64,000 nucleotides of DNA from Candidatus Edwardsbacteria bacterium (GCA_020053305.1 JAGVNJ010000006.1:13166-77165), one strand, 5' to 3'. Shown: positions 2,499 through 23,336, counted from the stretch's first letter. The notes: a model not told the origin generated them from the letters alone. Made by a program: numbers and translations.

Positions 2499-2528
2499 CG
2501 TACTGCCTACTTGTATGTTATGCTTTGG

Positions 2529-2557
2529 GGATACATTAGTGATGCCATTGTGAGATA
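2529..2557. repeat. Left flanking array of four-helix-bundle element 1 (GTGATAC-like x3, ~10-11 nt period)
   Basis: GGATAC at 2529, GTGATGC at 2539, GTGAGATA at 2550. This is the reverse complement of the GTATCAC array on the other side of the gene. Confidence 0.6.
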
Positions 2558-2558
2558 T

Positions 2559-2945
2559 TTACGATAGACGATGGAGCGAAGCGATGTAATTATTCAGTTT
2601 GACGGAGAGATTCTTATGTTTCACCGAATAGGTGCCAAGCATTTCATCTGAAACGTATTTCATCCTATGGCTAAAAACCAGATGGTGCTTGGTTTCAGCC
2701 AATGAGCCACGGGCAATGATGCAAAAATGAATCCGTTCTTTATAGGTATACCTGCCCCAGCCCTCGGCAATATTGGCGCCAATCGAGTTTGATGACCTGC
2801 GCACTTGCGAAGTCAAATTATATTGCTCCTCTTTGGGAAACTCTGCCGTAACTTGATACACCCATTCCGCCAGGTCCAGCGCCAGTTGGTATATTTCTAG
2901 ATCGGTGAAATCCTGTATCGCCTTTTTTCTTTCACTACCTTCCAT
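2559..2945 (-). CDS. Four-helix-bundle protein (23S rRNA intervening-sequence protein family, Avd-like), copy 1
   Basis: Family hallmarks: DLEIYQLALDLAEWVY...FPKEEQYNLTSQVRRSSNSIGANIAEGWGR...ARGSLAETKHHL. 128 aa, ATG at 2945. Confidence 0.85.
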   Translation of the reverse strand: MEGSERKKAIQDFTDLEIYQLALDLAEWVYQVTAEFPKEEQYNLTSQVRRSSNSIGANIAEGWGRYTYKERIHFCIIARGSLAETKHHLVFSHRMKYVSDEMLGTYSVKHKNLSVKLNNYIASLHRLS

Positions 2946-2946
2946 T

Positions 2947-2996
2947 GTATCACTACCGTATCACCATTGTATCACATGTTTTTACTGGAATATCAC
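2947..2996. repeat. Right flanking array of element 1 (GTATCAC x3 at 11-nt period plus TATCAC)
   Basis: GTATCAC at 2947, 2958 and 2969; TATCAC at 2991, overlapping the stop of the upstream gene. Confidence 0.75.
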
Positions 2997-4183
2997 TCGA
3001 CTTTTTTGTCATTCTCCGCCTTGACCGGAACGAACTCCCCGCCCTTGACCCTCCAGATGACATACGGCGCGGCCTTGATGTCGCCCTTGTTATTAAAATC
3101 CACCTCTCCCATGGCCCCGTAGAACTTCTGGGAATGCAGCACGCTGACCAGCGAATCCCCGGCGGCAATCCCGGCCTTTTCGATGGCCTGCAGCAGCACC
3201 ATGGCGGCATCGTAGGAGTAGACCGAATACGGCCCGATCTCGCCGTAGCGGGCCTTGAAGGAACCGTAGAACCGTCCGGCCTCCGGCATATCCTCCACCG
3301 CCGGGCCGAAGGTGAAATATGTGCCCTCGGTGGCAATGCCCCCGGCCTTTAAATAGACCGAGTTGGCGATGGCATCGCCGGCCATGAAGGCGCTTTTGAG
3401 TTTCCGTTCCTTCATCTTCCGCACCAACACCGCCCCCTCGGGATAGCTGCCGCCGAAGTATACCAGATCCGGCTGGATGCTGATCAACGGGTCCAGTACT
3501 GCGTCATAACCGGGTGCTTGCCCGTCCTTGACCGGCTGCAGCTCGGCCTCGGCCACGATCTCAACTGCCGGAATGGCGTTTTTGCCTCTAGTACCGATCG
3601 GCAGCTGTATCGAAGCAGTGATCAATTTCGTGAACTCCTCGGTAAGCCCGCGTCCATAGGTGGTGCCGTCGTTGAAGACAGCCACCTTTTTGATCTTCAG
3701 GTTATTAAGGGCGAAATCGGCCGCCACCTGTCCCTGCTGGTCGTCGCGCCCGCAGGTGCGGAACACGTTGGCAAATCCCTGCTCGGTGTATTTAGGATTG
3801 GTGGAGGACGGGGAGATCTGGGGCAGCATCCTCTGATTGTAGATGCGGCTGCCGGCTATGGAACAATGGCTGTTGTAGTGACCTATCACTCCGCAAACGC
3901 CCTGGTTGGACAGCTTCTCGGCCACGTTATATGCTTCCTTCTCATCGGCCCGGTCGTCGCCGGCTATGATCACTATCCTTTTGCCCAGCACTCCGCCCTT
4001 GGCATTCCATTCGGAGACCGCCAGCTGGACACCGTGCAGCACATCCTGCCCGGCCTTGGCCTGCTCGCCGGTCAGCGGCCCGGCCACTCCGATCTTGATC
4101 TGCTGGCCGCCCGGCCCGCAACCGGAGAATACAAGCGATATCAGGACGCCTGCTGTTAAGAGAATTGCAGTTGATTTTTTCAT
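2993..4183 (-). CDS. Branched-chain-amino-acid-type (LivK/LivJ-like) ABC substrate-binding lipoprotein
   Basis: Signal peptide plus lipobox (LVFSGCG), then IKIGVAGPLTGEQAKAGQD...GVIGHYNSHCSIAG..., typical of type 1 periplasmic binding proteins. Confidence 0.8.
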   Translation of the reverse strand: MKKSTAILLTAGVLISLVFSGCGPGGQQIKIGVAGPLTGEQAKAGQDVLHGVQLAVSEWNAKGGVLGKRIVIIAGDDRADEKEAYNVAEKLSNQGVCGVIGHYNSHCSIAGSRIYNQRMLPQISPSSTNPKYTEQGFANVFRTCGRDDQQGQVAADFALNNLKIKKVAVFNDGTTYGRGLTEEFTKLITASIQLPIGTRGKNAIPAVEIVAEAELQPVKDGQAPGYDAVLDPLISIQPDLVYFGGSYPEGAVLVRKMKERKLKSAFMAGDAIANSVYLKAGGIATEGTYFTFGPAVEDMPEAGRFYGSFKARYGEIGPYSVYSYDAAMVLLQAIEKAGIAAGDSLVSVLHSQKFYGAMGEVDFNNKGDIKAAPYVIWRVKGGEFVPVKAENDKKVE

Positions 4184-4217
4184 TTTATGCCTACTATATG
4201 TATGTTTAAAAGGTTTA

Positions 4218-5195
4218 CTAAAATACTACGGTCTCGGACTTTTTCTTAGCCCTGAATTTATTTAAAAACCAATATTTGATACTTTCCAATTTTTGGAATA
4301 ACCCACGCGGGCCAAAAACAAGCAATTTAAAATCATCGGATTTTATATAAATATATTCCGGCGCATTTTTAAACGTTTTGGTCGGTTTTATGAATATTTT
4401 TGCTTCGCAGTTCATCTTGATATCTATTGGCCGGTTTGTAGTTATCATTTCGTGTAATCGTGGCCCCCAGAAATTAATTTCTTCATTTGGCAACAGCCAT
4501 GATTTACTTTTATCATTATAATCAATATAATCAATTAAAGAATCTGACCAAGGAGCAACGAAATCTTCGGACACCATATTTTCTTTTAATGATATTTTCG
4601 CACCACACAAGCATCCAATATCTATGGTATCTCTGCTTATATTTTTTATATGATAATACAGAGGAAGTAAATGCCCGGAGATTATTTTTATTTTTTTAGG
4701 TTCATACCCATCGGGGACCGGTATTATTTTTAAATTATTATTACTTGGAAAAGCACGTTTGCCGATCCTTAAACCACGTTTAAAAGAATATTCCTTTAAA
4801 AAAAATGCTTTGGAGGTATCATCATCCAAAATGCCTGAAATTTTTATGCTCCCTTTCGTTTCATCATCTATCATATTAATACTAGCTTGCCAAATATAAA
4901 TTGTATCCGCCCAAACTGTTGTTTTCCGCCCATTGATTTTCTTTATTATTTTCCCGCCTTGTGCATTTACTTCAAATTGCGCTTTCCTTATATTATATTT
5001 TGTTACGATTTTTACAGTTATTGTATCGCCTTTCAGTGAACCGCCTTCGATGCCAAATTTTATCCATTCCCCAGCATTAAAAAAATGCCGTTCGAACGAT
5101 GGTGTCGGTTTCGTAGCACCGCAGAGTGTAAATGGTATAATACAATAGCCAAGCAATATGGTATTTCTTGCAAATAATGCAATCCTTGATTTCAT
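4218..5195 (-). CDS. Hypothetical lipoprotein on an AT-rich island
   Basis: Long ORF. Internal ATG at 5195 gives MKSRIALFARNTILLGYCIIPFTLCG, a signal peptide with lipobox. No recognisable domain. Composition is much more AT-rich than the flanking hydrogenase genes. Confidence 0.55.
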   Translation of the reverse strand: MKSRIALFARNTILLGYCIIPFTLCGATKPTPSFERHFFNAGEWIKFGIEGGSLKGDTITVKIVTKYNIRKAQFEVNAQGGKIIKKINGRKTTVWADTIYIWQASINMIDDETKGSIKISGILDDDTSKAFFLKEYSFKRGLRIGKRAFPSNNNLKIIPVPDGYEPKKIKIISGHLLPLYYHIKNISRDTIDIGCLCGAKISLKENMVSEDFVAPWSDSLIDYIDYNDKSKSWLLPNEEINFWGPRLHEMITTNRPIDIKMNCEAKIFIKPTKTFKNAPEYIYIKSDDFKLLVFGPRGLFQKLESIKYWFLNKFRAKKKSETVVF

Positions 5196-5240
5196 TTTAT
5201 TTCTTTCCCTCATGCGCATCAGATTATTCGAAACAGTGAA

Positions 5241-5471
5241 GGTAATAATCCTTCTTTCCTTGGTAATCATCGTTCCGGCCCTGGTAATAACCTTCCTGAC
5301 CAAGGAAATATTCGTTCCAACCTGGGGGATAAGCTTGCTTACTATGGTAATATCCTTTCTCCCCTCGGTAAGAACCTTTCCAACTTAGGTAATAACCATT
5401 CTTACTAAGGTAATATTCAATCTTACCCAAGTAATCAGCGATCTTACCTGAGTAACATTTCTCACAACCTC
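5241..5471. repeat. Tandem repeat, 11 units of 21 bp (consensus about GGTAATAWCCTTYCTNACYWW)
   Basis: Units start at 5241, 5262, 5283, 5304, 5325, 5346, 5367, 5388, 5409, 5430 and 5451. On the minus strand this reads as heptad x-x-G-Y-Y-x-x repeats (ORF 5224-5430), but the array continues two units past that ORF's ATG. Confidence 0.9.
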
Positions 5472-5548
5472 AAACATTCCAAAGAATTACCGATATTAAA
5501 GAACTGCTGGCTTTTTTGACCTAAAACGTCCGTACCACGCACTAACAG

Positions 5549-5584
5549 TTTCAAACCTCTCAAACGTTTCAAACCATTTCAAAC
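5549..5584. repeat. Solo short tandem array (T/C)TTCAAAC x4, 9-10 nt period
   Basis: TTTCAAAC at 5549, TCTCAAAC at 5558, TTTCAAAC at 5567 and 5577, just downstream of the antiporter-like gene stop (5596). Same motif as the right array of four-helix-bundle element 4. Confidence 0.8.
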
Positions 5585-5595
5585 TGTTAAGGAGG

Positions 5596-7122
5596 TCAAC
5601 CCCCGATCAATATTCTCAACACGCACTTGGTGGCGCTGTCCAAAAGCGGATGCATGATCTGGGGAAACACTCCCAGCACGATGGCCGCGATGGCCAGAAG
5701 CACCATCCCCACCCACATGGCCGCCGGCACCTCGGTGGCGGTGGCGGCCTCGGCCCCCACCGCATGGACTTCCTTCTCCGACCAGAAGATCTTATACCCG
5801 GCCCGGAAAAAGCAGACCAGGGTGAACAGCGAGGTGATGATGCCGATGATGGCCGCCCACATCAGTTTGGCCTCGCCCAATGCCAGGAACAGGGTGAACT
5901 TGGAAACGAAACCGTTGAACGGCGGCATCCCCGAAAGTGCAAACACCCCCACAAAAAAGGCGAAGGCCGTTAGGGGCATTTTGAATTTTACTTTGGATAG
6001 CTCGGATATCTTGCGCTTTCCGGCGGAATAGATGATGGCTCCCACCGCCAGGAACAGCAGTCCCTTGATAATGGTGTGGTTGATCAGGTGCATCAGCCCG
6101 CCGTAGATCCCCAGGTAGGTGCCCATGCCCAGGCCCTCGATGACATAGGCAATCTGGGCCACCGATGAATAGGCCAGCATCCTTTTGAGGTCGTCCTGGA
6201 CCATGGCCATCATCATGCCCACGATCATGGAGATGGAGCAAAGGATGGCGATGAACAGGGGGATGGTGCCGTAATGCGGGGCGAAAACCGAGATGGTCCG
6301 GGCCAGGGCGTAGGCCCCCACCTTGATGACGATGCCTGACAGCAGGGCCGACACCGGGGCCGGAGCCTCGGCGTGGGCGTCGGGCAGCCAGGCATGGAAG
6401 GGCACCAGCCCGGCCTTGGTGCCGAAGCCCACCACCATGAAGGCGGCGGCCAGCAGAACGATGTTGCTGGGTATCTTGGTGGCGATGGTCCCCAGTTCGG
6501 TCAGTAGCAGCACCCGGGAGACCGGCAGAAACGGGGTGGCCGCCGAATACAGCAGCACCGATCCCAGCAGGGCGAACACCACCCCCACCGTCACCAACAG
6601 CAGATATTTATAACCCGCCTCCAGGGCCGGTTTGTTCCAGTGGAAGGTCACCAGAAAAACGGTGGCCAAAGTGGTGAATTCCAGGGAGACATACAGCATG
6701 ATGATGTTGTTGGTGGCGCAGGTCCAGTTCATCAGTCCCAGGAAAACCAGAATCTGCCCGTAGTAGGTGGTCATGCTGGTGTAGGGGTGGGCCTCCTCTA
6801 TCTCGGTCTTGGCCCCGAAATACTTCATGGAGTAGACCACCACGATCACCCCCATCACGCTGGCCGCCAGCTCCATCAGGGTGGACAGCCCGTCCACATA
6901 GAAATTATTGCCCCACCAGGTGAGCACCTCCCCGTTCAGGACCCGGACGGTCATCATTACGGCGATTAACAGGGTCAGGCTTATCCCGGTCAGCGCCAGG
7001 CCGTGGCGGAAGATCTTTCCCAGCCGGCCCAGGGCGAATATCAGCCCGCCGAACACCAGCGGGACCAGGAATACCAGTAGGGGCAGTATCGACACCGCCG
7101 TGGGATTGATAGTTACAACCAT
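5596..7122 (-). CDS. Hydrogenase-4 antiporter-like membrane subunit (HyfF/HyfD, NuoM/N-like)
   Basis: 508 aa polytopic protein with the proton-conducting transporter signature: GTKAGLVPFHAWLPDAHAEAPAPVSALLSG. Confidence 0.85.
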   Translation of the reverse strand: MVVTINPTAVSILPLLVFLVPLVFGGLIFALGRLGKIFRHGLALTGISLTLLIAVMMTVRVLNGEVLTWWGNNFYVDGLSTLMELAASVMGVIVVVYSMKYFGAKTEIEEAHPYTSMTTYYGQILVFLGLMNWTCATNNIIMLYVSLEFTTLATVFLVTFHWNKPALEAGYKYLLLVTVGVVFALLGSVLLYSAATPFLPVSRVLLLTELGTIATKIPSNIVLLAAAFMVVGFGTKAGLVPFHAWLPDAHAEAPAPVSALLSGIVIKVGAYALARTISVFAPHYGTIPLFIAILCSISMIVGMMMAMVQDDLKRMLAYSSVAQIAYVIEGLGMGTYLGIYGGLMHLINHTIIKGLLFLAVGAIIYSAGKRKISELSKVKFKMPLTAFAFFVGVFALSGMPPFNGFVSKFTLFLALGEAKLMWAAIIGIITSLFTLVCFFRAGYKIFWSEKEVHAVGAEAATATEVPAAMWVGMVLLAIAAIVLGVFPQIMHPLLDSATKCVLRILIGG

Positions 7123-7159
7123 ATACTTGCTCTACTTTATTGCTTATTAAGCTTATTAA

Positions 7160-7280
7160 ATTATCCTGTCGCTTCGTTTGGTCATTGAGACGGCTTCCCC
7201 GACTATCTGACGAAGCAATCTAAAATACCTGGATCGCGTCGTTTGCCTATCTAATGATGGTCTTCTCGCGATGACTGACT
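7160..7280. repeat. REP-like nested palindromic intergenic element (GTCATYSYGAG-arm family)
   Basis: GTCATTGAGAC ... TCTCGCGATGAC inverted arms, with CTGACGAAGCAATC inside. Related arms occur at 21255-21395, 28055-28295 and 45872-46025. Confidence 0.6.
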
Positions 7281-7282
7281 TG

Positions 7283-7759
7283 TCATTGGCACTGGGCGGC
7301 CATGCTGACCAGCTGCATCCTGGTGTCCTTGAGGCGCGAGGTCAGCACCTGCAGTATCAACTGTAGCATCTTGATCCCCGTCTGAGGTTCATCTATGCAC
7401 AGCTGGTAGACCTTCTGACCCTCGGCCACCAGCACGGTGACATCGCTGACCGCCCGGGCCGAGGCGGTGCCGCCGCTCTGCACCAGGTCGAAGGCGTTGG
7501 ACCATTCGATGATGCGTCCCGGGCTGAGCTCCATGGTCAGCACCAGCCGGTCGGCGCTTTCGGAAAGCCGGGTGGCCACCTCCACCGCCACCTTGCCCTC
7601 CACCAGGACCATCATCTCGGTGCTTTCGGCGCGTTCGGGGATCATGGCCTGATCGGCTTGGTATTTTCTTTCGCTGAACAGCGGGGCCAGTTTTTCCAGC
7701 TCGGCATCGGAGAAATCGCTGAAAAAGTTCAGCTTTTTCAAAACATTTTTGTCGGCCAT
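7283..7759 (-). CDS. Stand-alone cyclic-nucleotide-binding (cNMP) domain protein
   Basis: FFSDFSDAELEKLAPLFSERKYQADQAMIPERAESTEMMVLVEGKVAVEV...SARAVSDVTVL fits the CAP-family effector-domain pattern. At 158 aa it has no HTH or other output domain. Confidence 0.7.
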   Translation of the reverse strand: MADKNVLKKLNFFSDFSDAELEKLAPLFSERKYQADQAMIPERAESTEMMVLVEGKVAVEVATRLSESADRLVLTMELSPGRIIEWSNAFDLVQSGGTASARAVSDVTVLVAEGQKVYQLCIDEPQTGIKMLQLILQVLTSRLKDTRMQLVSMAAQCQ

Positions 7760-7774
7760 TTTATTGCTCCTTCT

Positions 7775-8437
7775 CTATCGTTTCAGGCTGGACAGCTTCA
7801 TGGTGTCGGCGCTGCCGAAGGCCTTGTAGATGCTCTCGGTGAGGAACAGCAGCATCACCGCGGCAACCACCACGTTGGAGACTATCCCCAGGATGGTGGT
7901 CACCGGAAGCTTGGGCACCAGGGTCACCAGGGCCAGGTGAACGCCGTTCTCTATCAGGTGCAGACCGATGATTATCTTGACCGCATCACGGTGGACCACC
8001 AGCACGTACAGCCCCAGCACGAAGATGGTGAAGGCCAGAGCCAGCGACGAGCGGGCCGGCTCGATGGTGGCCTCCACCGTCGGGGCAATGAAGCCCACAT
8101 AGGTGCGGATCATCTGGTAGAAGACGATCAGGAATACCGATAGGATTATGAACGACACCACGAAGCTCACCAGAGGCTTTACCTCGATGAACTCGGTGCG
8201 TTTGATGTGCCACCACAGCAGCGCCGGGATGATCACCACCTTGGTGATGAAGGTCAGGGCCGCCCACCAGTACAGGGTGTAGTTTTGGCTCTTCTCGGCG
8301 AAGGCCACGATGATGAACGACAGCAGCAGCGACTGCACCAGCAGGAACAGGGTGGCGGTCTTCAGATTACGAATCTCGGCCGCCCCCACCGAAGCGATGA
8401 AGTGGCAGGCCATTAAAGTTGTGATCAGATCACCCAT
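7775..8437 (-). CDS. hyfE: Hydrogenase-4 membrane subunit E (HyfE-like, NuoK-related)
   Basis: 220 aa, about 7 TM segments. Size and operon position match HyfE. Confidence 0.7.
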   Translation of the reverse strand: MGDLITTLMACHFIASVGAAEIRNLKTATLFLLVQSLLLSFIIVAFAEKSQNYTLYWWAALTFITKVVIIPALLWWHIKRTEFIEVKPLVSFVVSFIILSVFLIVFYQMIRTYVGFIAPTVEATIEPARSSLALAFTIFVLGLYVLVVHRDAVKIIIGLHLIENGVHLALVTLVPKLPVTTILGIVSNVVVAAVMLLFLTESIYKAFGSADTMKLSSLKR

Positions 8438-8572
8438 AATTTCTTCTTGATAAAAGCTTAAATAATGTTTGAGAAGTTAAACGATATATGACGGGCACTG
8501 TTTGAGATGCCTGCCTCTTTAAGGCAATCGATGATATTGCGTCAGAGATGTCCATCTGAAGGTCTGGCGATG

Positions 8573-8929
8573 TTATGCCCTCAGCGATCTTTCCAATGCC
8601 AGAAGTTTGAAATATAACTTGTCCAACAATGGTTCTGCGCCTTTAAACTCCGCCGGGGAAATATATTTTCGAGCGACGCCGATTTTCAGATTAGCTATTG
8701 TTTCCACCAAAGACCCGACAGCAATATTGACGTAATGGGCAAAGTCCTTTTTGGTGTGCTTGCAGCTTCCTTCAGCAATGTTCAGGGCAATTGAGGTTAC
8801 GGATCTCTTGCCTTGCTGTTTCAGGATATATTCTTCGGACTTGGGATACATCTCCAGCAAAGCGTACGCTTTATCAAAGCATTCCAGTGAAATATTCCAC
8901 ACTTCCAGTTTCTGAAACTTCAATTCCAT
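8573..8929 (-). CDS. Four-helix-bundle protein (IVS-protein family), copy 2
   Basis: MELKFQKLEVWNISLECFDKAYALLEMYPKSEEYILKQQGKRSVTSIALNIAEGSCKHTKKDFAHYVNIAVGSLVET. ATG at 8929; the track ORF starts at an upstream TTG. Confidence 0.8.
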   Translation of the reverse strand: MELKFQKLEVWNISLECFDKAYALLEMYPKSEEYILKQQGKRSVTSIALNIAEGSCKHTKKDFAHYVNIAVGSLVETIANLKIGVARKYISPAEFKGAEPLLDKLYFKLLALERSLRA

Positions 8930-9038
8930 ACTCACTCCATCCTTTCGTATACACAATTAATCGTCATCATGCCACCCTGTCTGGCATTTCAGACATCGCC
9001 AAACTTTCTAATTGCACTTCTCAAACGCCCTGCGGTCG

Positions 9039-9491
9039 TTACGCTCCCGTTCCATTGCGGAATCCCACCGTCATCATCCTGTCGATGATGGTCTGGGTCT
9101 CGAAGCACCGGCCGCAGCGCTGGCAGGTCCCCATGTAAACCTCGGCCGAGATGTGCATGTCGTTGTGGACATCGTTGGTGGCGGTTTCGAATTCCTGGGT
9201 CATAGTGATGGCCTTCTCCGGGCAGACGTCGGCGCAGCGTCCGCAGTAGGTGCAGCGCTCCAGATAGAAGTCCAGCTTGCGGACGGCCTGGCGGTCGGTT
9301 ACCACTATCAGCCGCGAGGGGCAGACATTGGCGCAGCCGGCGCAGCCGATGCATTTACTGACGTCTATGGTCAGCTTGCCCCGGAAGCCATCCACCGGAA
9401 GGGCCTCGATGTTCCTTTTTAAGGGATAGGGAAAGGTGACCCGCAGGTTTTTAAAGCAGATAAGGGCTTCTTTTAGTTTAGATAAGATCAT
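9039..9491 (-). CDS. hyfH: Hydrogenase 2x[4Fe-4S] ferredoxin-type subunit (HyfH/HycF, NuoI-like)
   Basis: CIGCAGCANVCP and CTYCGRCADVCP motifs, plus a C-terminal CQRCGRC. Confidence 0.85.
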   Translation of the reverse strand: MILSKLKEALICFKNLRVTFPYPLKRNIEALPVDGFRGKLTIDVSKCIGCAGCANVCPSRLIVVTDRQAVRKLDFYLERCTYCGRCADVCPEKAITMTQEFETATNDVHNDMHISAEVYMGTCQRCGRCFETQTIIDRMMTVGFRNGTGA

Positions 9492-9497
9492 ACTAAT

Positions 9498-9525
9498 GTT
9501 TACAATTTGTATGTTTACAGTTTAC
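9498..9525. repeat. Left flanking array of element 3 (GTTTAC x3)
   Basis: GTTTAC at 9498, 9513 and 9520, between the hyfH start and the stop of four-helix-bundle copy 3. Confidence 0.75.
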
Positions 9526-9536
9526 TGTTACCTTAA

Positions 9537-9935
9537 CTATTGGGTCGCTTTATACTTTAACCCCTTAATGTCAGTATTACCAAGGTATTTCATTAGGCTG
9601 AAAATTAAACGATTTATCTCTTCTGCTAACAGATAAACCTTGTTAAAAACATCTCCCGTAATATATTTTTGATCCAGTGCTGCATACAACTGGCTCTTGA
9701 CTTCACCCACAGATCCTTTGGCTATCGATAAATACTGTATGAACTCTTTCCTGCCACCCCTGTCAAATCCTTCTGCAATGTTAGACATAATTGAAACAGC
9801 GGCCCTTCTTATCTGATCACGCAAACCAAAGTCTTTGGAAAAATTTCCATTCTTGGTAATTTCATAAACCAATCTGGTCAATTCTCTTGCTTTTTGCCAA
9901 GCGGTGATGTCTTCAAATTTCTTAAACGTAGCCAT
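9537..9935 (-). CDS. Four-helix-bundle protein (IVS-protein family), copy 3
   Basis: [27 protein letters not shown]...[45 protein letters not shown]. Confidence 0.85.
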
Positions 9936-9958
9936 ATAAACATCTCTATATGATTACT

Positions 9959-9979
9959 GTAAACTACCGAACCGTAAAC
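9959..9979. repeat. Right flanking array of element 3 (GTAAAC x2, inverted relative to the left array)
   Basis: GTAAAC at 9959 and 9974. ACTGTAAAC (9956-9964) is the exact reverse complement of GTTTACAGT (9513-9521). Confidence 0.75.
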
Positions 9980-9991
9980 TTAAAACTCTTA

Positions 9992-10882
9992 TTACGCTCC
10001 CACCAACGCAAACACCAGTCCCACCAAAGCCGTCAACACCACTCCGAAATAATAGATCATGGCCTGGTCTATCCGCAGGCGGGGGTTGACCACGTCCACC
10101 AGACCGACCAGCAAAATGACCACCAGTATCTTGGCGATCTGGGCCAGCACCGCCCACAGTCCGGAGAGGCCGAAGGTCCATGGAAAAAATATCTGCACCA
10201 GGATCAGGGAAAATATCAGCTGCTTGATGATGAAGCCCCAGCGGTACAGGGCGAAGGTCGGCCCGGAGATCTCGATGAACGGCCCGCCCATCAGCTCGCC
10301 CTCGGCCTCGGGGATGTCAAACGGCAGTTTGGACAGCTGGGCCTGGATGCCCAACAACAGCGCGATCCCGGAGATGATCATGGAAAGCGAGGTGCCGGAG
10401 GACTGCTGGTAGAAGGCCATGTCGGAAAAGCGGAAGCTGTGGGTCTTCAGGGCCGCCGTGATCAGGGCGATGAACAGCACCGGCTCCACGGTCAGGGAGG
10501 TCATCATCTCCCGGGCAGTGCCCAGAAAGGCGTAGGGCGAGCCGGAGTCCATCCCGGCCAGCATCACGCAGACCGAGGCGAAACCGATCATATAAAGAAA
10601 CAGGATCATATCGCCCCCGGCAAAGGCCGCGCTTCCGCCCACCGGCACCAGCAGGCCGGCCAGCAGGACGGCCGCCAGGCTCAGGTAAGCCGGCACCGGC
10701 CCCAGCATGGAATGGGACGAACGGACGTTGTCCTTGCCCAGCAGTTTGAGGGTGTCCCAGTAGGGCTGCAGCAACGGCGGCCCGATCCGGGAATGCACCA
10801 GGGCCTTGAATTTGCGGAGGATGCCTTCCAGCAGCGGGGAGAGGAACAGCAGGGCCATTACCATTATTAATATTCTGAGCAT
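9992..10882 (-). CDS. hyfC: Hydrogenase membrane subunit (HyfC/HycD, NuoH-like)
   Basis: About 296 aa polytopic protein with NuoH-like features (ILRKFKALVHSRIGPP, PFDIPEAEGEL). ATG at 10882; the track ORF starts at a TTG one codon upstream. Confidence 0.85.
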   Translation of the reverse strand: MLRILIMVMALLFLSPLLEGILRKFKALVHSRIGPPLLQPYWDTLKLLGKDNVRSSHSMLGPVPAYLSLAAVLLAGLLVPVGGSAAFAGGDMILFLYMIGFASVCVMLAGMDSGSPYAFLGTAREMMTSLTVEPVLFIALITAALKTHSFRFSDMAFYQQSSGTSLSMIISGIALLLGIQAQLSKLPFDIPEAEGELMGGPFIEISGPTFALYRWGFIIKQLIFSLILVQIFFPWTFGLSGLWAVLAQIAKILVVILLVGLVDVVNPRLRIDQAMIYYFGVVLTALVGLVFALVGA

Positions 10883-10897
10883 CAAATTACCCTTATT

Positions 10898-10930
10898 GTT
10901 TGAAATGTTCCTGGTTTGAAAAAGTTTGAA
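10898..10930. repeat. Left flanking array of element 4 (GTTTGAA x3)
   Basis: GTTTGAA at 10898, 10914 and 10924. Confidence 0.8.
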
Positions 10931-10933
10931 CCG

Positions 10934-11326
10934 TTATGCTTGCTTGTGCTTTGCGCCTTTAATGGGCGAGGTTTTTAGGTACGTTATCAATTTTGCTATC
11001 ATAATTGAAAGCCCGGCAGCTTCTTCTCTTAAAGTTTTACCCTCAACCTCGGTCAGAAACATCAATTCCTGAGCGATCCATAAATGGCTCCTCAACTCCC
11101 CGCAAGACCCCTTGGCAATATAAAGATACTGAATAAACTCCTTATTGTTTTCCCTTTCGAACCCTTCGGCAATATTCGCCATAACAGAAACAGCCGCCCG
11201 TCGCGTTTGATCGACCAAGGGATAATCCTTATGATACTTTTGTACGTCAGCAGCCGCATAAATTTTTAGTGTCAACTGCTTGGCAATCTGCCATATTTTC
11301 AGATCTTCAAAATTCTTTACCGTCAT
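10934..11326 (-). CDS. Four-helix-bundle protein (IVS-protein family), copy 4
   Basis: MTVKNFEDLKIWQIAKQLTLKIY...RRAAVSVMANIAEGFERENNKEFIQYLYIAKGSCGELRSHL. ATG at 11326. Confidence 0.85.
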   Translation of the reverse strand: MTVKNFEDLKIWQIAKQLTLKIYAAADVQKYHKDYPLVDQTRRAAVSVMANIAEGFERENNKEFIQYLYIAKGSCGELRSHLWIAQELMFLTEVEGKTLREEAAGLSIMIAKLITYLKTSPIKGAKHKQA

Positions 11327-11354
11327 CACACGCCTCTTTTCCAATGCCAACCAT

Positions 11355-11390
11355 TTCAAACGCTTCCAACAGCTTCAAACCGTTTCTAAC
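11355..11390. repeat. Right flanking array of element 4 (TTCAAAC-like x4, 10-nt period, inverted relative to the left array)
   Basis: TTCAAAC at 11355, TTCCAAC at 11364, TTCAAAC at 11374, TTCTAAC at 11384. The last overlaps the large-subunit stop codon. Confidence 0.8.
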
Positions 11391-13065
11391 TATGCTTTGC
11401 CGTCCAGCTCGACAACTCTTCCTGGCCGTATATCCTGATCTTCCCGGAATCAACATCCACCACCTCCATCCGCTCGGTGCAGGAAAAACAGGGATCTATG
11501 GAACCCACGATGATCGGCACGTCGGCCACCTGCTCGCCCCGGACCATGTCCGGAATGGTCGGCAGGTTGGGATAGGTGGGGCAGCGCACCCTCCAGCGCT
11601 CCGGCCGGTTGTTGCCGCCGGTCAGCAAAAAGTGGACATCCTCGCCCCGGGGAGCCTCCACCGCCGAAATGGCGATGCGCCCGGCCGGGATGTCCTGCCG
11701 GATCTCGGTGATGATGTCGCCCTCCGGCAGTTCCATTAAAGCGTCTAAAGATTGATTGACGATCTTGAAAGACTCCAGAGTCTCCAATATCCGGACCACC
11801 GTCCGGCCCCAAACGTCGTTGCTGTCGGCGGTTATCACCTTGAAGTCCACCGCATCGTAGGCGCAGTAGGGATGGTCCTTGCGGGCGTCCATATCCAGAT
11901 CGGCCGCCCGGGCCACCGGGCCCACCGCCGCCCACTCGTGACAGCCCTCCTTGTTGAGGATCCCCACCTTCTCCAGCCGCATCCGCAGTGTGGTGTCGTC
12001 CTTGACCGCATCCAGCACCGCCAGCCATTCCTTCTCCATATTGTTCATCTTGGTGCGGATCTCGGGCACCAGGGTCCGGGGGATGTCGCGCCGCACTCCG
12101 CCGATCAGGTTCATGCCGTAGGTCTTGCGGTTGCCGGTGATCTTCTCGCACAGCCACATGATGGGCTCCCGCATCCGCCAGGTCTGCATCAGCACGGTGT
12201 CGAAGCCGATGATGTGCCCGGCCACCCCCAGCCACAGAGCGTGGGAATGGATGCGCTCCAGCTCCAGCATGATGGTCCGGATGAAGTCGGCCCGCCGCGG
12301 CACCTTGATGTCGGCGGCGTGTTCCACCAGCTTGCAGAAGGAGACGTTGTGCACGAAGCCGCAGATGCCGCAGATCCGCTCGGCCATGAACGGTATCTGA
12401 TTGTAGGTCAGGGTCTGGTCGCCCAGTTTTTCGATTCCCCGGTGGGCGTAGAACCCCCGGTAGTCGACATCCACCACCTTCTCGCCCTCCACATAGAGCC
12501 GGAAATAGGTGGCCTCCTCGAACACCGGGAAATACGGCCCCATGGCCACCACCGTGGTGCCTGGAGGATTGTCCTTGAACTTATAGGCCTGCTCGGGATG
12601 GGACTCCGGTTTTTGGCTGTAATCAAATTCTTTGCGCAGGGGGTAGACCTCGGCCGGCCAGTCGTCGGCCAGTATCAGCCGCCGGGGATCGGGATGGTTT
12701 TCGAACTGTATCCCCAGCAGGTCCCGGATCTCGCGCTCCGACCAGTTGGCCCCGGCAATGACGTTGGTGATGGAGGGTATCCTGGGGGTGTGGGGATCGG
12801 CCGTCACGTCAAGGGTGATGAAGAAATGATCCTTGTCGAAGGTGAACAGGTGGTAGACCGCAAAGCGCTTTTTGATGTCCCGCTCGTCGGAGCCCACGCT
12901 GACTAAGTATCTGGCAGGGGTCTGGCGGTGCAGTATCTCCACCGCCTGCACCACCGCCTCCGGCTTGACCTCCACCCACAACTGATCGTGGATCGGCTCG
13001 GTGGATCCCATGAACCCGGCGCCCAATTTGGCTTTCAGTAAGCTTAGAATATCCTGTTTGGTCAT
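11386..13065 (-). CDS. hyfG: Group 4 [NiFe] hydrogenase large subunit (HyfG/HycE, NuoC-NuoD fusion type)
   Basis: N-terminal Ni-binding motif RICGICGFVH and C-terminal DPCFSCTER, followed by a 27-aa tail of the kind removed by a HycI-type protease. 559 aa. Confidence 0.95.
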   Translation of the reverse strand: MTKQDILSLLKAKLGAGFMGSTEPIHDQLWVEVKPEAVVQAVEILHRQTPARYLVSVGSDERDIKKRFAVYHLFTFDKDHFFITLDVTADPHTPRIPSITNVIAGANWSEREIRDLLGIQFENHPDPRRLILADDWPAEVYPLRKEFDYSQKPESHPEQAYKFKDNPPGTTVVAMGPYFPVFEEATYFRLYVEGEKVVDVDYRGFYAHRGIEKLGDQTLTYNQIPFMAERICGICGFVHNVSFCKLVEHAADIKVPRRADFIRTIMLELERIHSHALWLGVAGHIIGFDTVLMQTWRMREPIMWLCEKITGNRKTYGMNLIGGVRRDIPRTLVPEIRTKMNNMEKEWLAVLDAVKDDTTLRMRLEKVGILNKEGCHEWAAVGPVARAADLDMDARKDHPYCAYDAVDFKVITADSNDVWGRTVVRILETLESFKIVNQSLDALMELPEGDIITEIRQDIPAGRIAISAVEAPRGEDVHFLLTGGNNRPERWRVRCPTYPNLPTIPDMVRGEQVADVPIIVGSIDPCFSCTERMEVVDVDSGKIRIYGQEELSSWTAKHS

Positions 13066-13080
13066 TGTATTCCTGATAGT

Positions 13081-13503
13081 TTAAGAGGTTGAATTGGTTG
13101 AAGCTGTTGCAGAGGTTTTTGGGCACCTCTTGCCTTTAACTTTAGTGTTTAGTAAGTATGTGATAAAGTTGTACACCATCGTGGAAATCCCTGAAGCCAT
13201 TTCTCTGGCTTGCGTATGTTGTGCCGGGGTTATGTATCCCCTTTCTTGAGCAAATATCAGGTGGCTTCTCAGTTCTCCGCACGAACCTTTTGCAATAAAC
13301 AAAAACTGAATGAATTCTTTGTTGCTGCCTCTTTCAAACCCCTCGGCAATATTGGCCATTACCGAAACTGCTGCCCGTCGCGATTGATCCATAAGGCTTT
13401 TGTCGCATTTAAAAGTATTTGTTCCCGTTAAATCGTAAATCAAGTTAGCAAGATCTTTGGCCTGCTGCCAGATTTTTAAATCTTCAAATCTCTTGACGGT
13501 CAT
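13081..13503 (-). CDS. Four-helix-bundle protein (IVS-protein family), copy 5
   Basis: MTVKRFEDLKIWQQAKDLANLIYDLT...RRAAVSVMANIAEGFERGSNKEFIQFLFIAKGSCGELRSHL. Closest paralog of copy 4. Confidence 0.85.
   Translation of the reverse strand: MTVKRFEDLKIWQQAKDLANLIYDLTGTNTFKCDKSLMDQSRRAAVSVMANIAEGFERGSNKEFIQFLFIAKGSCGELRSHLIFAQERGYITPAQHTQAREMASGISTMVYNFITYLLNTKVKGKRCPKTSATASTNSTS
13087..13102. repeat. Left flanking array of element 5 (GGTTGAA x2)
   Basis: GGTTGAA at 13087 and 13096. It lies inside a short C-terminal read-through extension of copy 5 (…TSATASTNSTS) that the paralogs lack. Confidence 0.7.
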
Positions 13504-13513
13504 AGTTTAATCC

Positions 13514-13566
13514 CTTCAACCTTTTAAACCAGTGCGTCTTTTCAACATATTCAACCTTTTAAACGG
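13514..13566. repeat. Right flanking array of element 5 (TTCAACC/TTCAACA x3; includes two copies of TTCAACCTTTTAAAC)
   Basis: TTCAACC at 13515, TTCAACA at 13541, TTCAACC at 13550. Inverted relative to the GGTTGAA array. Confidence 0.8.
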
Positions 13567-13584
13567 AGCCCAATAGCTGTCAGC

Positions 13585-14220
13585 CTAGTTAACATCTCCC
13601 CAGTTGAAACTGATCCCTCCGGTAAAGCCATATCCGGATATGTCATCCAGCGGTTTCCCGTACAAGTAGTTTGCCTCGATGGGAATGGATATCAATTTAC
13701 CGAGTTTTATTTCAAATCCTCCATTCACGCCAAAGCCCACCTCCGGATCCTCGTTATTCCCCGTTATGCTCAGTCCGACATAACTCAATTTATATTCCTC
13801 GGTGACGGAATAAACATTGGCCTGGAGATATGGGAAAAGTCTTTCTCCGATATTACCCGGGTTGTACCGCAAACCTATCCCCACACCTCCGGCGGTCACT
13901 TCCCCCTTAAGACCGTTGACTTCCTCATCGCTGGTCCAGGCCCGGATATCCACCGCCAGGTCAACATTTTTATCGAAGGAGTAGCGGTAGTTGAGATATT
14001 GGCCTGTTCCCTGGCTGAGGTCGAACCCCGGCAGCTTAAAATCCCCGCTGGTGGATTTGAAATATCCCAGAAAACCCAGGGAGATATGGTGCCGCCCCAG
14101 GTTCTCACTGAATTTTTTCTGGTTCAGGGCCGCAGTCACCACCTCATCGTCGCTTTGAAACTGGGCCTGGGCCATTCCGCAGAGACTGGCAAGAAGAATC
14201 AGAACGGATATTTTTTTCAT
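13585..14220 (-). CDS. Small outer-membrane beta-barrel protein (porin-family-like)
   Basis: MKKISVLILLASLCGMAQAQ signal peptide, alternating beta-strand pattern, aromatic-rich C-terminus (GGISFNWGDVN). Confidence 0.6.
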   Translation of the reverse strand: MKKISVLILLASLCGMAQAQFQSDDEVVTAALNQKKFSENLGRHHISLGFLGYFKSTSGDFKLPGFDLSQGTGQYLNYRYSFDKNVDLAVDIRAWTSDEEVNGLKGEVTAGGVGIGLRYNPGNIGERLFPYLQANVYSVTEEYKLSYVGLSITGNNEDPEVGFGVNGGFEIKLGKLISIPIEANYLYGKPLDDISGYGFTGGISFNWGDVN

Positions 14221-14363
14221 GTTGCCCCTTATAAACATTTTAACCTTTTCAACTTTTTAACTTTTTTCTAGATTCCCGATGGATTTAACTCCACACTTGA
14301 TGCGGAACAGGAATAACATTACCTTGCCTTTTTCATAAATCATGTTAATCCTGTCAAGGGTTT

Positions 14364-16406
14364 CTATCCCACCATGAACATGATGAACAGCGCCACCGCC
14401 GCGCCCACCACCATCCACAGCAGATACCACTGCGGGAAACCGCTGTGGGTGCCGGCGAATACTTCCAGCACCTTGTGCCCCACGTAGACCAACGGACGGT
14501 ACAGCCAATCGTCCACGTCTAAAATATGTTTAAGCTTGAAGGATTTTTTGATATTGGGCAGTTTCCAATGTGGGTAGACCCCCTCCTGGGTGTACTTGCC
14601 GAACCGGATATTGAAATGCTGTTTGAAGGTCCTGAAATAGCTGCCCGAATAATAACGCACCGCCTCCGGACTCTGCACCTCGCCGGAATACCACAGGTTG
14701 GAAACCGTCTGCTTGGCCCCACCGGATTTCCAGATGATCCAGGCCGCCAACCCCAGCACCGCCAGGGCGATCAGCACGAACAGCGGCTTGTAGAAGCCCA
14801 CCAGTCCGGCGCCGAAATTAAGGGCCAGGCCCCACTGGCTGGTGTTTATTATCGAGGAGAGCTGCGGCCAATATGAGGGTGTTTGGAAGCCAATGACCGC
14901 CCGGTAGATCGCCTTGGCGATGGGCGCCACCAGCAGCCCCTCCAGGAACATCACCGCCACCAAAAGATACTGGGCGCTTCTCATCGTCCCCGGGACATCC
15001 GACTCTACCTTGGCATTCTCCGGCAGGCGCTGGCCCAAAAAGCTCATACCCAGGTATTTGACCATCATGGAGAGTGTTATCAGGCTGGTGAACAGGGCCA
15101 CCAGGCCGCATACCAAGATAAGAGGCACGGCAAACCCGCTGTTCAGGGTGGACTGGTAGATGAACCACTTGGAGGCAAAACCGTTCAGCGGTGGGATGCC
15201 GGCCACTGCCAGCCCGGCCACCAGGGCGGCCGCCGCGGTATGCGGCATGTATTTGCCCAGGCCGCCCAGCCGGTCCAGGTCGCGATGCCCGGTCTTATAC
15301 TGCAATGAGCCGGCCGATAAAAAGAGCATGGTCTTTATGGAGGCATGGTTGATGATGTGGTAGACCCCGGCCATCAGCGCGATGGTGGCCATGGCCGGGC
15401 TGATGGGCAGCAGGGCCAGGCCGGCCCCGACCGCCAGCAGGATATAGCCGATCTGCCCGATGGAGGAAAAGGCCAACAGCCGCTTGGCGTCCCTCTGGAA
15501 CAGGGCGGTCAATGTGCCCACGAACAGCGACACCGTGCCGAAGCAGACCATGATGATGCCCCATGTGTAGGAGAAGTGCGACACCGGCAGCATCCCCAAA
15601 AAGACCCGGAGGATCCCGTAGATTCCCATTTTGATCATCACCCCGGACAATATGGCCGATATCGGGGAGGGCGCCGCCGGGTGGGCGTCGGGCAGCCAGT
15701 CACCGAAGGGAAAGACGCCGGCCTTGGTGGCGAATCCCAGGAAGAACAACAGCAATAATGTGTGCAGCAGGACCGGGTTGTCAGTCCGCAGCAGTCCCAT
15801 CACCGGACCCAGGGCGTTGAAGTCGAAGGACTGGCTGTAGTGATAAAGGGTGTTGGCGGCGATGATGATCCCGGCGGTGCCAATGTGGGTCATCAAAAAA
15901 TATTTGAACCCGGCGTTGACGTTGGTCTTGTTGCCCCATTCGTAGACCACCAGGGCATATGAGGTCAGGGTCATGAATTCCCAGAAGACGATGAAGAAGA
16001 ACAGGTCCCGCACCACCACCACCCCGTACATGCCCAGCAGGAACAACAGCAACAGCGGATAGTAGCGGGCCAGCGATTCCTTGTAATGCTTCATGTATTC
16101 TATGGAATACAGCCCGGCGGCCCAGGAGACGATGGTGATCACCAGCAGGAAGATGGCCGACAACACATCCACCTTCAGCAGGAACGAAGCCCCCAGGCCG
16201 GCCACCTGGAATACCGGCTTGTCTAAGTTAAAGGTCCCGCTGGCCAGCACCTGCAGGGCTGTGTAGAAAAAGCCCAGCGAGGCCACAGTCTGGAAGAATA
16301 GGGATATCCAGCCGATGGTCCGCCGGGAATACGGCATCAGCAGGGTTACGGCAGCGCCCAGGAACAGCGTTGCCATGGAGAACAGAATGACGGTTTGAAG
16401 ATTCAT
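14364..16406 (-). CDS. hyfB: Hydrogenase-4 antiporter-like membrane subunit B (HyfB/HycC, NuoL-like)
   Basis: 680 aa polytopic protein with ATKAGVFPFGDWLPDAHPAAPSPISAILSG and a long C-terminal extension typical of NuoL/HyfB. Confidence 0.9.
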   Translation of the reverse strand: MNLQTVILFSMATLFLGAAVTLLMPYSRRTIGWISLFFQTVASLGFFYTALQVLASGTFNLDKPVFQVAGLGASFLLKVDVLSAIFLLVITIVSWAAGLYSIEYMKHYKESLARYYPLLLLFLLGMYGVVVVRDLFFFIVFWEFMTLTSYALVVYEWGNKTNVNAGFKYFLMTHIGTAGIIIAANTLYHYSQSFDFNALGPVMGLLRTDNPVLLHTLLLLFFLGFATKAGVFPFGDWLPDAHPAAPSPISAILSGVMIKMGIYGILRVFLGMLPVSHFSYTWGIIMVCFGTVSLFVGTLTALFQRDAKRLLAFSSIGQIGYILLAVGAGLALLPISPAMATIALMAGVYHIINHASIKTMLFLSAGSLQYKTGHRDLDRLGGLGKYMPHTAAAALVAGLAVAGIPPLNGFASKWFIYQSTLNSGFAVPLILVCGLVALFTSLITLSMMVKYLGMSFLGQRLPENAKVESDVPGTMRSAQYLLVAVMFLEGLLVAPIAKAIYRAVIGFQTPSYWPQLSSIINTSQWGLALNFGAGLVGFYKPLFVLIALAVLGLAAWIIWKSGGAKQTVSNLWYSGEVQSPEAVRYYSGSYFRTFKQHFNIRFGKYTQEGVYPHWKLPNIKKSFKLKHILDVDDWLYRPLVYVGHKVLEVFAGTHSGFPQWYLLWMVVGAAVALFIMFMVG

Positions 16407-22870: not shown

Positions 22871-22883
22871 AATTCTTCTTAAG

Positions 22884-22911
22884 CTCTAATTTCTAATTTC
22901 TAAACTCTAAA
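22884..22911. repeat. Left flanking array of element 6 (YTCTAAW x4, 7-nt period)
   Basis: CTCTAAT at 22884, TTCTAAT at 22891, TTCTAAA at 22898, CTCTAAA at 22905. Confidence 0.75.
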
Positions 22912-22936
22912 CAAATCCAAAACTAAAATGACAAAA

Positions 22937-23320
22937 TTATTGTGTTTTTTCCACTATTGATCCGAAAATTTTCATCAACTGGGTGGCTTCATCGCAAAGA
23001 ATTTGTCTTTCTTTTTCTATTTTCTCATTATCTGTTTCAATTAGATTAAGCCAGTATCTTGATTCTTTGGCTTCCTTGCGGGATATCTTGATGTGCATTA
23101 AAAAATCTTTACGGCTTAAGGCCTCATTGGCCTCTATGTAATTGGCTCCGACAGATCCGCTGGAGCGTACTAATTGTTTGATTATTTCGTTATTGACCAC
23201 ATCCTTTGGCAGTTTTCTTACAAAAGCGATAACAGCCCTAGCGAATTTTAATGTTCGTTCTTCAAGATCATACTGCCTGGATTTTTCTGTTTTTGTATTT
23301 GTATTTTGGCTTTCGGACAT
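22937..23320 (-). CDS. Four-helix-bundle protein (IVS-protein family), copy 6
   Basis: YDLEERTLKFARAVIAFVRKLPKDVVNNEIIKQLVRSSGSVGANYIEANEALSRKDFLMHIKISRKEAKESRYWL. Confidence 0.8.
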   Translation of the reverse strand: MSESQNTNTKTEKSRQYDLEERTLKFARAVIAFVRKLPKDVVNNEIIKQLVRSSGSVGANYIEANEALSRKDFLMHIKISRKEAKESRYWLNLIETDNEKIEKERQILCDEATQLMKIFGSIVEKTQ

Positions 23321-23336
23321 TGTTCAGGATTTCGTA

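Follow-up and report, generated by a model that had tools for sequence, protein, structure and literature searches.

Inverted repeat arrays bracket four-helix-bundle genes in hydrogenase-operon spacers and may mark intervening-sequence-type cassettes in mRNA

Why should a series of small genes, scattered through the spacers of a hydrogenase operon, each be enclosed by opposed arrays of short repeats in tandem, with a repeat of its own in every case? We use computational analysis of a 64,000-nt stretch of DNA from a Candidatus Edwardsbacteria bacterium (GCA_020053305.1 JAGVNJ010000006.1:13166-77165; hereafter the window, meaning this whole stretch), of its close relatives and of loci from many phyla to study the interplay between these genes and their flanking repeats. 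The host system is a Hyf/Hyc-type group-4 [NiFe]-hydrogenase operon at 2.0-16.4 kb on the minus strand, with genes for HyfB, HycE/NuoCD, HycD/NuoH, HycF, HyfE, HyfF and HycG and a GC content of ~57-62%. The PF05635/TIGR02436 four-helix-bundle genes of the window, called 4HB genes here and labelled e1-e6, each lie in an intercistronic spacer in the same orientation as their operon; they have 118-140 codons, a GC content of 36-45%, and are confined to operon spacers. In profile searches all six match both families far above the curated cut-offs (for e3, E=8.6e-37 to PF05635 and E=3.1e-34 to TIGR02436, with 37.6% GC vs 57-61% in the adjoining genes). PF05635 bears the name '23S rRNA-intervening sequence protein' and TIGR02436 the name 'four helix bundle protein'; the fold is assigned through sequence matches to the PDB relatives 2GSC and 2RLD, each of which has five chains.

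We first consider the arms themselves. An initial annotation of positions 9,492 to 13,584, which hold e3, e4 and e5, had claimed that inverted arrays bracket each 4HB gene and that the repeat differs from gene to gene, and the motifs it listed are all reproduced: GTTTAC at 9498, 9513 and 9520 and GTAAAC at 9959 and 9974 around e3, including an exact 9-nt complement (GTTTACAGT at 9513 and ACTGTAAAC at 9956, each present once in the 64 kb); GTTTGAA at 10898, 10914 and 10924 beside e4; and GGTTGAA at 13087 and 13096 with TTCAAC[CA] at 13515, 13541 and 13550 around e5. On the other side of e4 the four expected units are present as TTC[ACT]AAC at 11355, 11364, 11374 and 11384, but the exact 10-nt period ascribed to them is not, the spacing being 9-10 nt. 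An inverted-repeat search finds flanking arms of 16-34 nt, 72-100% complementary, at all six genes, including e1, e2 and e6, which lie outside the range first described. Those of e3 are 9498-9521/9956-9979 (24 nt, 75%), those of e4 are 10898-10922/11337-11361 (25 nt, 72%) and 10913-10935/11359-11381 (23 nt, 78%), and those of e5 are 13079-13102/13541-13564 (24 nt, 88%), the 3' end of the e5 gene overlapping its downstream arm. Spacing between repeat units is ~7-15 nt. When every upstream arm is compared with every downstream arm in a 6x6 matrix, the top partner is always the gene's own; the only notable cross-match, a second best, joins e4 and e5, which are also the most similar proteins among the window copies (59% identity, other paralogue pairs lower), just as had been proposed. 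The window arms are short and imperfect, and 'array' here means 2-5 degenerate units, far weaker than their long counterparts in other phyla.

To ask how often such arms would arise by chance, we align the 100 nt upstream of a gene locally with the reverse complement of its downstream flank and compare the score with that of 100 dinucleotide shuffles. The score tops 100/100 shuffles for e1, e2, e4, e5 and e6 and 96/100 for e3, while direct (non-inverted) flank scores of the window 4HB genes stay at the null level. Ordinary operon genes score z ~0, with the exception of HycE at z 3.1, which is explained by its position, because the e5 downstream arm and the e4 upstream arm flank it. Other genes intercalated in the operon (methyltransferase, MNT/HEPN, outer-membrane protein, substrate-binding protein, prolyl-tRNA synthetase and Por_Secre_tail) have no flanking inverted repeats and score z ~0. 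In a window-wide list, 4HB arms make up 4 of the 25 longest inverted repeats no more than 900 nt apart. No Rfam family scores above threshold in the window, and between 8300 and 14400 there is none even at E up to 1. A separate detail is that the e5 downstream arm (13088-13114) and the e4 upstream arm (11359-11381) share a 12-nt exact complement, CAACAGCTTCAA / TTGAAGCTGTTG, and therefore the two cassettes could also pair together across HycE in the transcript.

The same architecture is found well beyond this organism. We scanned one genome per GTDB species with a pattern derived from a 7-sequence alignment; the survey covers relatives of the e3/e4/e5 subgroup, gene starts are set by a simple rule, and z-scores and E-values throughout come from shuffles and not from a phylogenetic null. 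It returned 80 4HB loci spread over many phyla, among them Acidobacteriota, Planctomycetota, Verrucomicrobiota, Bacteroidota, Nitrospirota, Desulfobacterota and Omnitrophota. The initial annotation had allowed that other genomic copies might lack inverted arrays; instead, inverted flank complementarity exceeds z=3 in 62/75 usable loci (median z 7.1), with a median of -0.3 in direct orientation. As controls, 272 neighbouring genes with 150 codons or more have a median z of 0.0, and 4% of them lie above 3 (Mann-Whitney p=7e-31). The strongest of these controls are Y1-transposase genes flanked by repetitive extragenic palindromic (REP) hairpins, with different repeats. RAYT-like, IS200-like Y1 transposase genes lie 1.4-2 kb from 4HB genes in two Ignavibacteria genomes (L069:2136-2609 and L021:1980-2453), and their hairpins (GTAGCGGAAACC...GGCTGAAGCCTTCC) are unrelated to the 4HB arrays.

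In the survey arms the units follow one another in tandem every 7, 8 or 9 nt (26 clear arrays), and the period is mostly equal in both arms. Typical upstream units are GTTCAAR, GTTTAAAC, GTTGAAR, GTTCCAA and GTTTCNG, with the reverse complement downstream, and they have a preferred polarity relative to the open reading frame (ORF): GTT outnumbers AAC in the upstream arm at 40 loci, with the reverse at 8. The upstream neighbour is co-oriented with the 4HB gene at 67/72 loci vs a 73% baseline (p=1.6e-5), and the median gap is ~75 nt on each side of the cassette. Cognate arms reach a mean score of 35.6 vs 16.4 for non-cognate ones; the cognate arm ranks first for 37/80 upstream arms and among the top three for 57/80.

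A second gene family has the same layout with different units. In relatives of the window organism a GxxExxY/PDDEXK_3 gene (TIGR04256), again with inverted arrays, sits at the junction equivalent to that of e6 (e.g. L002:3001-3381), and among metagenome loci of this family (within L090-L169) z exceeds 3 in 56/70, with a median of 8.6. Its units are a CACGAAA or CGCGAAA core plus 1-2 nt, in tandem units of 8-9 nt. Motif counts over the 80 nt that precede the start codon are 131 GTT[CTG][ACG]A vs 6 C[AG]C[GT][AG]A at 4HB loci, and 5 vs 159 at GxxExxY loci. Unit type separates the two families almost completely. Both the anatomy of the 4HB cassettes and its specificity for the enclosed gene family are shown by these comparisons. 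PADLOC gave no defence-system match for either the 4HB or the GxxExxY proteins.

Now we consider what happens to the arms as the host operon diverges. Homologues of HycE at 83-97% identity lie on contigs that hold the same operon, and these relatives have 4HB genes at the same junctions in varying combinations. Genes at the same junction are mutual best matches at 58-91% identity and are positional orthologues; the e5 orthologue in L002, for instance, occupies the same site at 88% identity. Every e4 homologue at 65-91% identity occupies the HycE|HycD junction, and among these close homologues there is no sign of recent transposition. At this junction the arms are GTTTGAA/TTCAAAC in the window's clade vs GTT(C/G/T)GAT/ATCAAAC in the other clade, and at HycD|HycF they are GTTTAC/GTAAAC vs ATTTACCATTTGGAA, the latter with an exact 15-nt complement. 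Positional orthologues thus keep the architecture while the units change on both sides together: the arms are conserved, and they co-vary.

The ratio of nonsynonymous to synonymous divergence (dN/dS) of 0.03-0.16 places the 4HB proteins under purifying selection. Their dS is 3-5x that of HycE in the same genome pairs, an excess that may partly reflect the extreme third-position GC content (GC3) of HycE. Host genes have a GC3 of 84-93%, 4HB genes mostly 35-61% with one at 72%; the low GC3 and high dS of the 4HB orthologues suggest allele replacement from outside or selection for AT-richness. Two near-identical strains, with flanks 99.6-99.8% identical, differ by a 793-nt 4HB element vs a 104-nt hairpin without an ORF that is itself built of inverted 8-mer arrays. 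Alignment of this filled and empty site (L003/L002) shows that the whole spacer is replaced, with no shared ends and no defined insertion junction.

Which known element has this anatomy? The closest is the intervening sequence (IVS) of ribosomal RNA. The IVS of Coxiella burnetii is 428 nt long, lies in helix 45 of 23S rRNA and contains an S23p ORF; a 28-bp stem is built by its terminal inverted repeats, two to four tandem GACAGAT heptamers precede the start codon, and in vitro the element is cleaved by RNase III at its first repeat (PMC4990558). ORFs of the 23S_rRNA_IVP type have also been reported from insertions in both 16S and 23S genes in a survey of rRNA insertions in the candidate phyla radiation (CPR) (PMC11270868). 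The rRNA IVSs of Coxiella and Leptospira (PMC4990558) resemble the window cassettes in having a homologous ORF, enclosing inverted repeats able to form a stem, tandem heptamer-type repeats just before the start codon, and a place within the host transcript. They differ in lying in helix 25 or 45 of 23S rRNA, whereas the cassettes lie in spacers between protein-coding genes: Rfam finds no rRNA in the window, and the genes that flank the cassettes of the hydrogenase operon encode hydrogenase subunits. The Coxiella ORF is decaying and probably untranslated, unlike the selected 4HB proteins, and the window arms are shorter and less perfect than rRNA IVS arms, with RNase III cutting known for Coxiella and here predicted. 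The initial annotation had been aware of no such arrangement in protein-coding operons, under either of its two readings (an RNase III-excised stem or cognate protein sites). A full-text literature search, which was not exhaustive, bears this out: it turned up no account, for such operons, of 4HB or GxxExxY genes enclosed by inverted arrays.

If the arms pair in the transcript, the predicted structures should reflect it. Whole-element minimum-free-energy folds of all six cassettes predict a terminal, imperfect stem of 19-31 pairs between the arms (22 pairs between 9949-9986 and 9498-9529 for e3, and 28-31 upstream-to-downstream pairs for e4). This predicted stem begins no more than ~25 nt from the upstream stop codon and, except in e2, ends no more than ~20 nt from the downstream start. 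In linker constructs, where the ORF is exchanged for a GAAA linker and stability is compared with 300 arm-shuffled controls, z is -3.4 for e2 (0/300 shuffles as stable), -3.6 for e3 (1/300), -2.8 for e4 (3/300) and -2.8 for e5 (0/300). Stems no more stable than shuffled sequence, an outcome envisaged in the initial annotation, are thus not what the constructs of e3, e4 and e5 show. RNAduplex gives larger gains beyond the window (medians -38 vs -27 kcal/mol for 4HB and -45 vs -31 for GxxExxY loci). We nevertheless dropped RNAduplex on 70-80-nt flanks as a discriminator in favour of the alignment statistic and the linker constructs, because it allows large loops and shuffled flanks score well too.

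Our favoured explanation, to which we assign a probability of about one half, is by analogy with rRNA: the 4HB genes would be IVS-type cassettes, relatives of the S23p-ORF rRNA elements, that reside in mRNA spacers and are processed by RNase III. A cassette comprises an upstream arm, an ORF of ~130 codons and a downstream arm, the arms being inverted copies of one unit repeated 2-5 times, and it is probably read as part of the operon transcript, lacking a separate promoter. Within the polycistronic RNA, pairing of the arms would give an imperfect stem of ~20-30 bp, looping out the ORF, leaving the host stop and start codons only a few tens of nucleotides apart and probably masking part of the 4HB ribosome-binding site. 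This stem is a likely RNase III substrate because the homologous Coxiella stem is cut by that enzyme, and the insert may then be excised or at least structurally insulated. The arrays probably double as sequence-specific recognition sites, most simply of the encoded pentameric protein, since across phyla the unit keeps its GTT-type core and fixed polarity and goes specifically with one family of ORF. Elements of this type are known from rRNA; the setting in protein-coding operons, the breadth of phyla and the parallel in a second family appear to be new. More tentatively, and with less confidence than we place in the account of the window itself, these loci may belong to one widespread, hitherto undescribed class of cassettes in transcribed spacers, in which a 4HB/S23p-pentamer or GxxExxY PD-(D/E)XK ORF lies between family-specific inverted arrays of 7-9-nt units and is neutralised at the RNA level by pairing and RNase III. 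The ORF-bearing rRNA IVSs would then be a special case, the arrays cognate sites of the encoded protein, and the ORF-less hairpins deletion derivatives.

Several results weigh against this explanation. The linker constructs of e1 and e6 do not differ significantly from arm shuffles, and RNAduplex on the window arms gives only a small gain (z -0.3 to -2.4). Arm mismatches hold no excess of G·U over A·C, either at 4HB loci (67 vs 74) or at GxxExxY loci (41 vs 41), and complementarity is no lower when the units of the downstream array are put in permuted order (Wilcoxon p=0.76); given these two nulls, maintenance of individual base pairs cannot be shown. A model of pure pairing has no need of a conserved unit core, a polarity or a family-specific unit type. 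Finally, it is hard to see what would be gained by cutting the mRNA of an operon, in contrast to excision from rRNA. The original reading survives in part. The comparison to IVS geometry stands as regards anatomy, membership of PF05635 and predicted stems, but no direct sign of selection for RNA pairing is seen; left and right arrays co-vary in sharing an element-specific unit, but not register by register.

The main rival, the second reading of the initial annotation, starts from the same units and gains indirect support from their link to the protein family. It holds that the arrays are iteron-like sites, on DNA or on the transcript, at which the encoded 4HB pentamer acts in autoregulation or cassette maintenance; RNA pairing and RNase III would be inessential, and the inverted layout would reflect a symmetric protein-nucleic-acid complex. 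We regard this as rather unlikely, even with a good deal in its favour: unit type is tied to protein family across phyla (131 vs 6 and 5 vs 159 motifs), although that link could be co-inheritance; unit core and polarity are kept despite fast turnover of the arrays; there is neither G·U bias nor register covariation; protein similarity in the window tracks unit similarity (e4/e5); and the proteins are under purifying selection. Avd, a 4HB homologue, binds nucleic acid. Family members are toroidal pentamers, as found for the Xanthomonas homologue (Lin et al. 2006, as cited in PMC4990558). The difficulty lies in the inverted copy, since a protein that binds GUUCAA in single-stranded RNA would miss the complementary downstream array, and some other reason for that array is then needed. 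Head-to-tail units of 7-9 bp are short for recognition of double-stranded DNA, the arms of e2 and of site c in L002 are complementary over 15-16 nt of non-repetitive sequence, and each of six paralogues in one genome would need a specificity of its own.

It is a good deal less probable that the arms are the DNA-level ends of a mobile or once-mobile element, either terminal inverted repeats or hairpin recombination sites used by a trans-acting enzyme. The RNA stem would then be a by-product, and concerted evolution, by slippage and templated repair between arms, would keep the arms complementary. This reading accounts for patchy presence and absence in close relatives, for the one clean allelic swap (793-nt 4HB element vs 104-nt ORF-less hairpin), for ORF-less hairpins of the same kind of arrays at 'empty' sites and for a strand-symmetric mismatch spectrum. 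It is also consistent with 4HB genes being multi-copy and low in GC (GC3 35-61% vs 84-93% in the host) with 3-5x the dS of the host gene, and with the same layout around a PD-(D/E)XK nuclease family. Yet no near-identical copies occur, e4 homologues at 65-91% identity share one junction, the cassette encodes no transposase or recombinase, and no target-site duplication was recognised by eye, the only way in which one was looked for, with no systematic test. Arms that differ between copies in one genome disfavour a shared trans-acting enzyme, and the marked tendency to share the direction of the upstream gene suggests that the cassettes depend on transcription. That the repeats are merely generic AT-rich spacer features (REP-like hairpins, terminators or low complexity) found beside 4HB genes by chance is hardly credible. 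Other hairpin repeats do occur in the spacers of this lineage, and heptamer direct repeats are known from bacterial spacers (PMC4679880). The controls already contradict it: neighbouring genes have a median z of 0.0 with 4% above 3, host operon genes and intercalated cargo lie at z ~0, direct-orientation scores are at the null level, the cognate arm is first for 37/80 and in the top three for 57/80, and Rfam finds nothing in the window.

Other known systems share parts of this anatomy. In REPIN-RAYT systems a Y1 transposase gene accompanies REP hairpins that are dispersed in many identical copies; as in the 4HB cassettes, one small spacer gene lies between inverted repeats, and the arm statistic detects both. 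Unlike RAYT loci, 4HB cassettes have no transposase, and their arms are element-specific arrays of 7-9-nt units; there is no PF01797 match on the 4HB ORFs, and we rejected the identity. Integron cassettes are likewise small promoterless ORFs with read-through transcription and a structured repeat. That repeat is one local 3' attC hairpin, and an integrase and an attI platform are needed; here the arms lie on opposite sides of the ORF, the downstream arm pairing with the upstream one, and there is no integrase among the operon genes. RNase III stems bracket 16S and 23S rRNA in their precursors, where pairing of the flanks encloses a functional RNA, and in phage T7 early mRNA RNase III sites lie between cistrons. 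The difference here is that the enclosed unit is a protein-coding cassette within an operon and the arms are tandem-repeat arrays.

Avd, the accessory protein of diversity-generating retroelements (DGRs), belongs to the same four-helix-bundle superfamily, and the window 4HB proteins match its profiles weakly. The best scores are 22.6 bits vs a cut-off of 80 (NF033474) and 19.6 vs 40 (PF22296), so we rejected Avd identity; a DGR was rejected as well, there being no adjacent reverse transcriptase, no template/variable repeat pair and no long direct repeats in the element regions. A terminal-inverted-repeat transposon or miniature inverted-repeat transposable element was set aside in view of window paralogues at most 59% identical and close homologues that share one junction. 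A resemblance of GGTTCRAAT units to the tRNA T-loop, a DGR relic and an integron attC were dropped for want of any supporting feature. Cyanobacterial STRR repeats are short tandem units in spacers. Intergenic heptamer repeats resemble the 4HB arrays in being ~7-nt tandem spacer units, often just before start codons, and vary in copy number in 7-nt steps. They have been catalogued as sets of direct repeats (TAACTGA in Beggiatoaceae, cyanobacteria and Bacteroidetes), not as paired inverted arrays around one gene family, and with no link to 4HB or GxxExxY genes (PMC4679880).

Table 1. Features of the window. Arms are named upstream or downstream in transcript sense.
Feature	Position	Strand	Context or units
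e1	2559..2945	-	between substrate-binding-protein gene and HycG small-subunit gene
e1 arms	2515-2553 + 2944-2977	-	GTGATAC, 11-nt period
e2	8573..8929	-	between HycF and HyfE
e2 nested arms	8467-8477/9016-9026 (exact 11 nt) + 8558-8603/8980-9008	-	
e3	9537..9935	-	132 aa; between HycD/NuoH-like and HycF/4Fe-4S subunit genes
e3 upstream arm	9949..9986	-	+ strand GTAAAC x2 = GUUUAC in RNA
e3 downstream arm	9498..9529	-	+ strand GTTTAC x3
e4	10934..11326	-	130 aa; between HycE/NuoCD-like large subunit and HycD; PF05635 E=1.4e-32
e4 upstream arm	11337..11390	-	RNA-sense GUUNGAA, 4-5 copies, 9-10-nt period
e4 downstream arm	10898..10935	-	RNA-sense UUCAAAC x3
e5	13081..13503	-	140 aa; just upstream of HycE; PF05635 E=1.9e-33
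e5 upstream arm	13506..13564	-	+ strand TTCAACCTTTTAAAC x2 plus TTCAACA
e5 downstream arm	13079..13114	-	+ strand GTTTAAGAGGTTGAATTGGTTGAA; 24 nt, 88% complementary; z=7.4
e6	22937..23320	-	second operon, between Fer4_22 / FAD-binding oxidoreductase genes
e6 arms	22880-22936 + 23290-23353	-	7-nt units
Relic upstream-type array	5548..5584	-	(GGUUUGAAA)x4 / (GGTTTGAAA)x4, transcript sense; Tandem Repeats Finder (TRF) period 9, 3.9 copies
GUUAAAAGUUGAAAAGG array	14234..14266	-	upstream of intercalated outer-membrane-protein gene

Further arrays lie in other spacers (Table 1). The relic array follows the HyfF stop codon immediately, and no 4HB gene comes after it; ~1.3 kb downstream, past a low-GC ORF of 361 codons, is a weakly complementary stretch (4200-4225). 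In the relative L001 this HyfF junction is occupied by a 4HB gene, intact though uncalled, with exact 15-nt arms. An outer-membrane beta-barrel gene (PF13505) at 13585-14266, between HyfB and e5, has GTTGAA-type units on both sides; it appears to split the e5 upstream array, of which the array at its far end looks like a split-off piece. In L002 a 4HB gene with GGTTGAA arrays directly follows HyfB.

The 'empty' junctions of L002 at 13754-13839 and 19223-19339 hold ORF-less hairpins of inverted 8-mer arrays (CACAAAGR / YCTTAGTG); their arrays are similar to the GxxExxY-type unit, and the hairpins may have arisen from cassettes by deletion. Truncated or uncalled 4HB genes (L170:5489-5689, L176:4388-4600, L009:9510-10000 and L009:13069-13546) show decay beside conserved copies in the relatives. 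Upstream of the HycF|HyfE 4HB gene of L003, at 13760-14020, a tandem repeat of ~65 nt in ~3.5 copies is partly complementary to the downstream flank of that gene.

Other repeats and genes are found in the same spacers. A conserved long hairpin (GTCATCGCGAG ... CTCGCAATGAC) occupies the spacer between a cyclic-nucleotide (cNMP)-binding gene and HyfF in the window (7140-7283), L001 (15592-15751) and L002 (15049-15215), and similar 'GGATTCCCGC...GCGGGAATGAC' hairpins recur in further L001 spacers. At 5241-5455 of the window, 21-nt tandem repeats in 2.7-4.2 copies overlap a short ORF, rich in Tyr and Gly, that lies upstream of the 361-codon gene. Throughout, the hydrogenase operon (window 2000-16400 and L001-L009) holds many unrelated intercalated genes that differ among close relatives: a cNMP-binding protein, a substrate-binding protein, the 361-codon low-GC ORF, prolyl-tRNA synthetase, a methyltransferase, MNT/HEPN pairs and a Por_Secre_tail protein.

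Few unexplained small genes are as common in bacterial genomes as those of the TIGR02436 four-helix-bundle and GxxExxY families, and some genomes hold many copies; six 4HB genes occur in this 64-kb window. If they do have a fixed cis-architecture, it would offer a handle on function, with the arrays as candidate substrates or binding sites, and it would tie the origin of ORF-bearing rRNA IVSs to a far larger population of elements in mRNA. Family-typical inverted unit arrays around an ORF of ~130 codons also make a simple detector, both for cassettes and for their ORF-less remnants. Operon transcripts may then be routinely interrupted or processed at such inserts, which would bear on operon annotation, polarity and the biology of RNase III.

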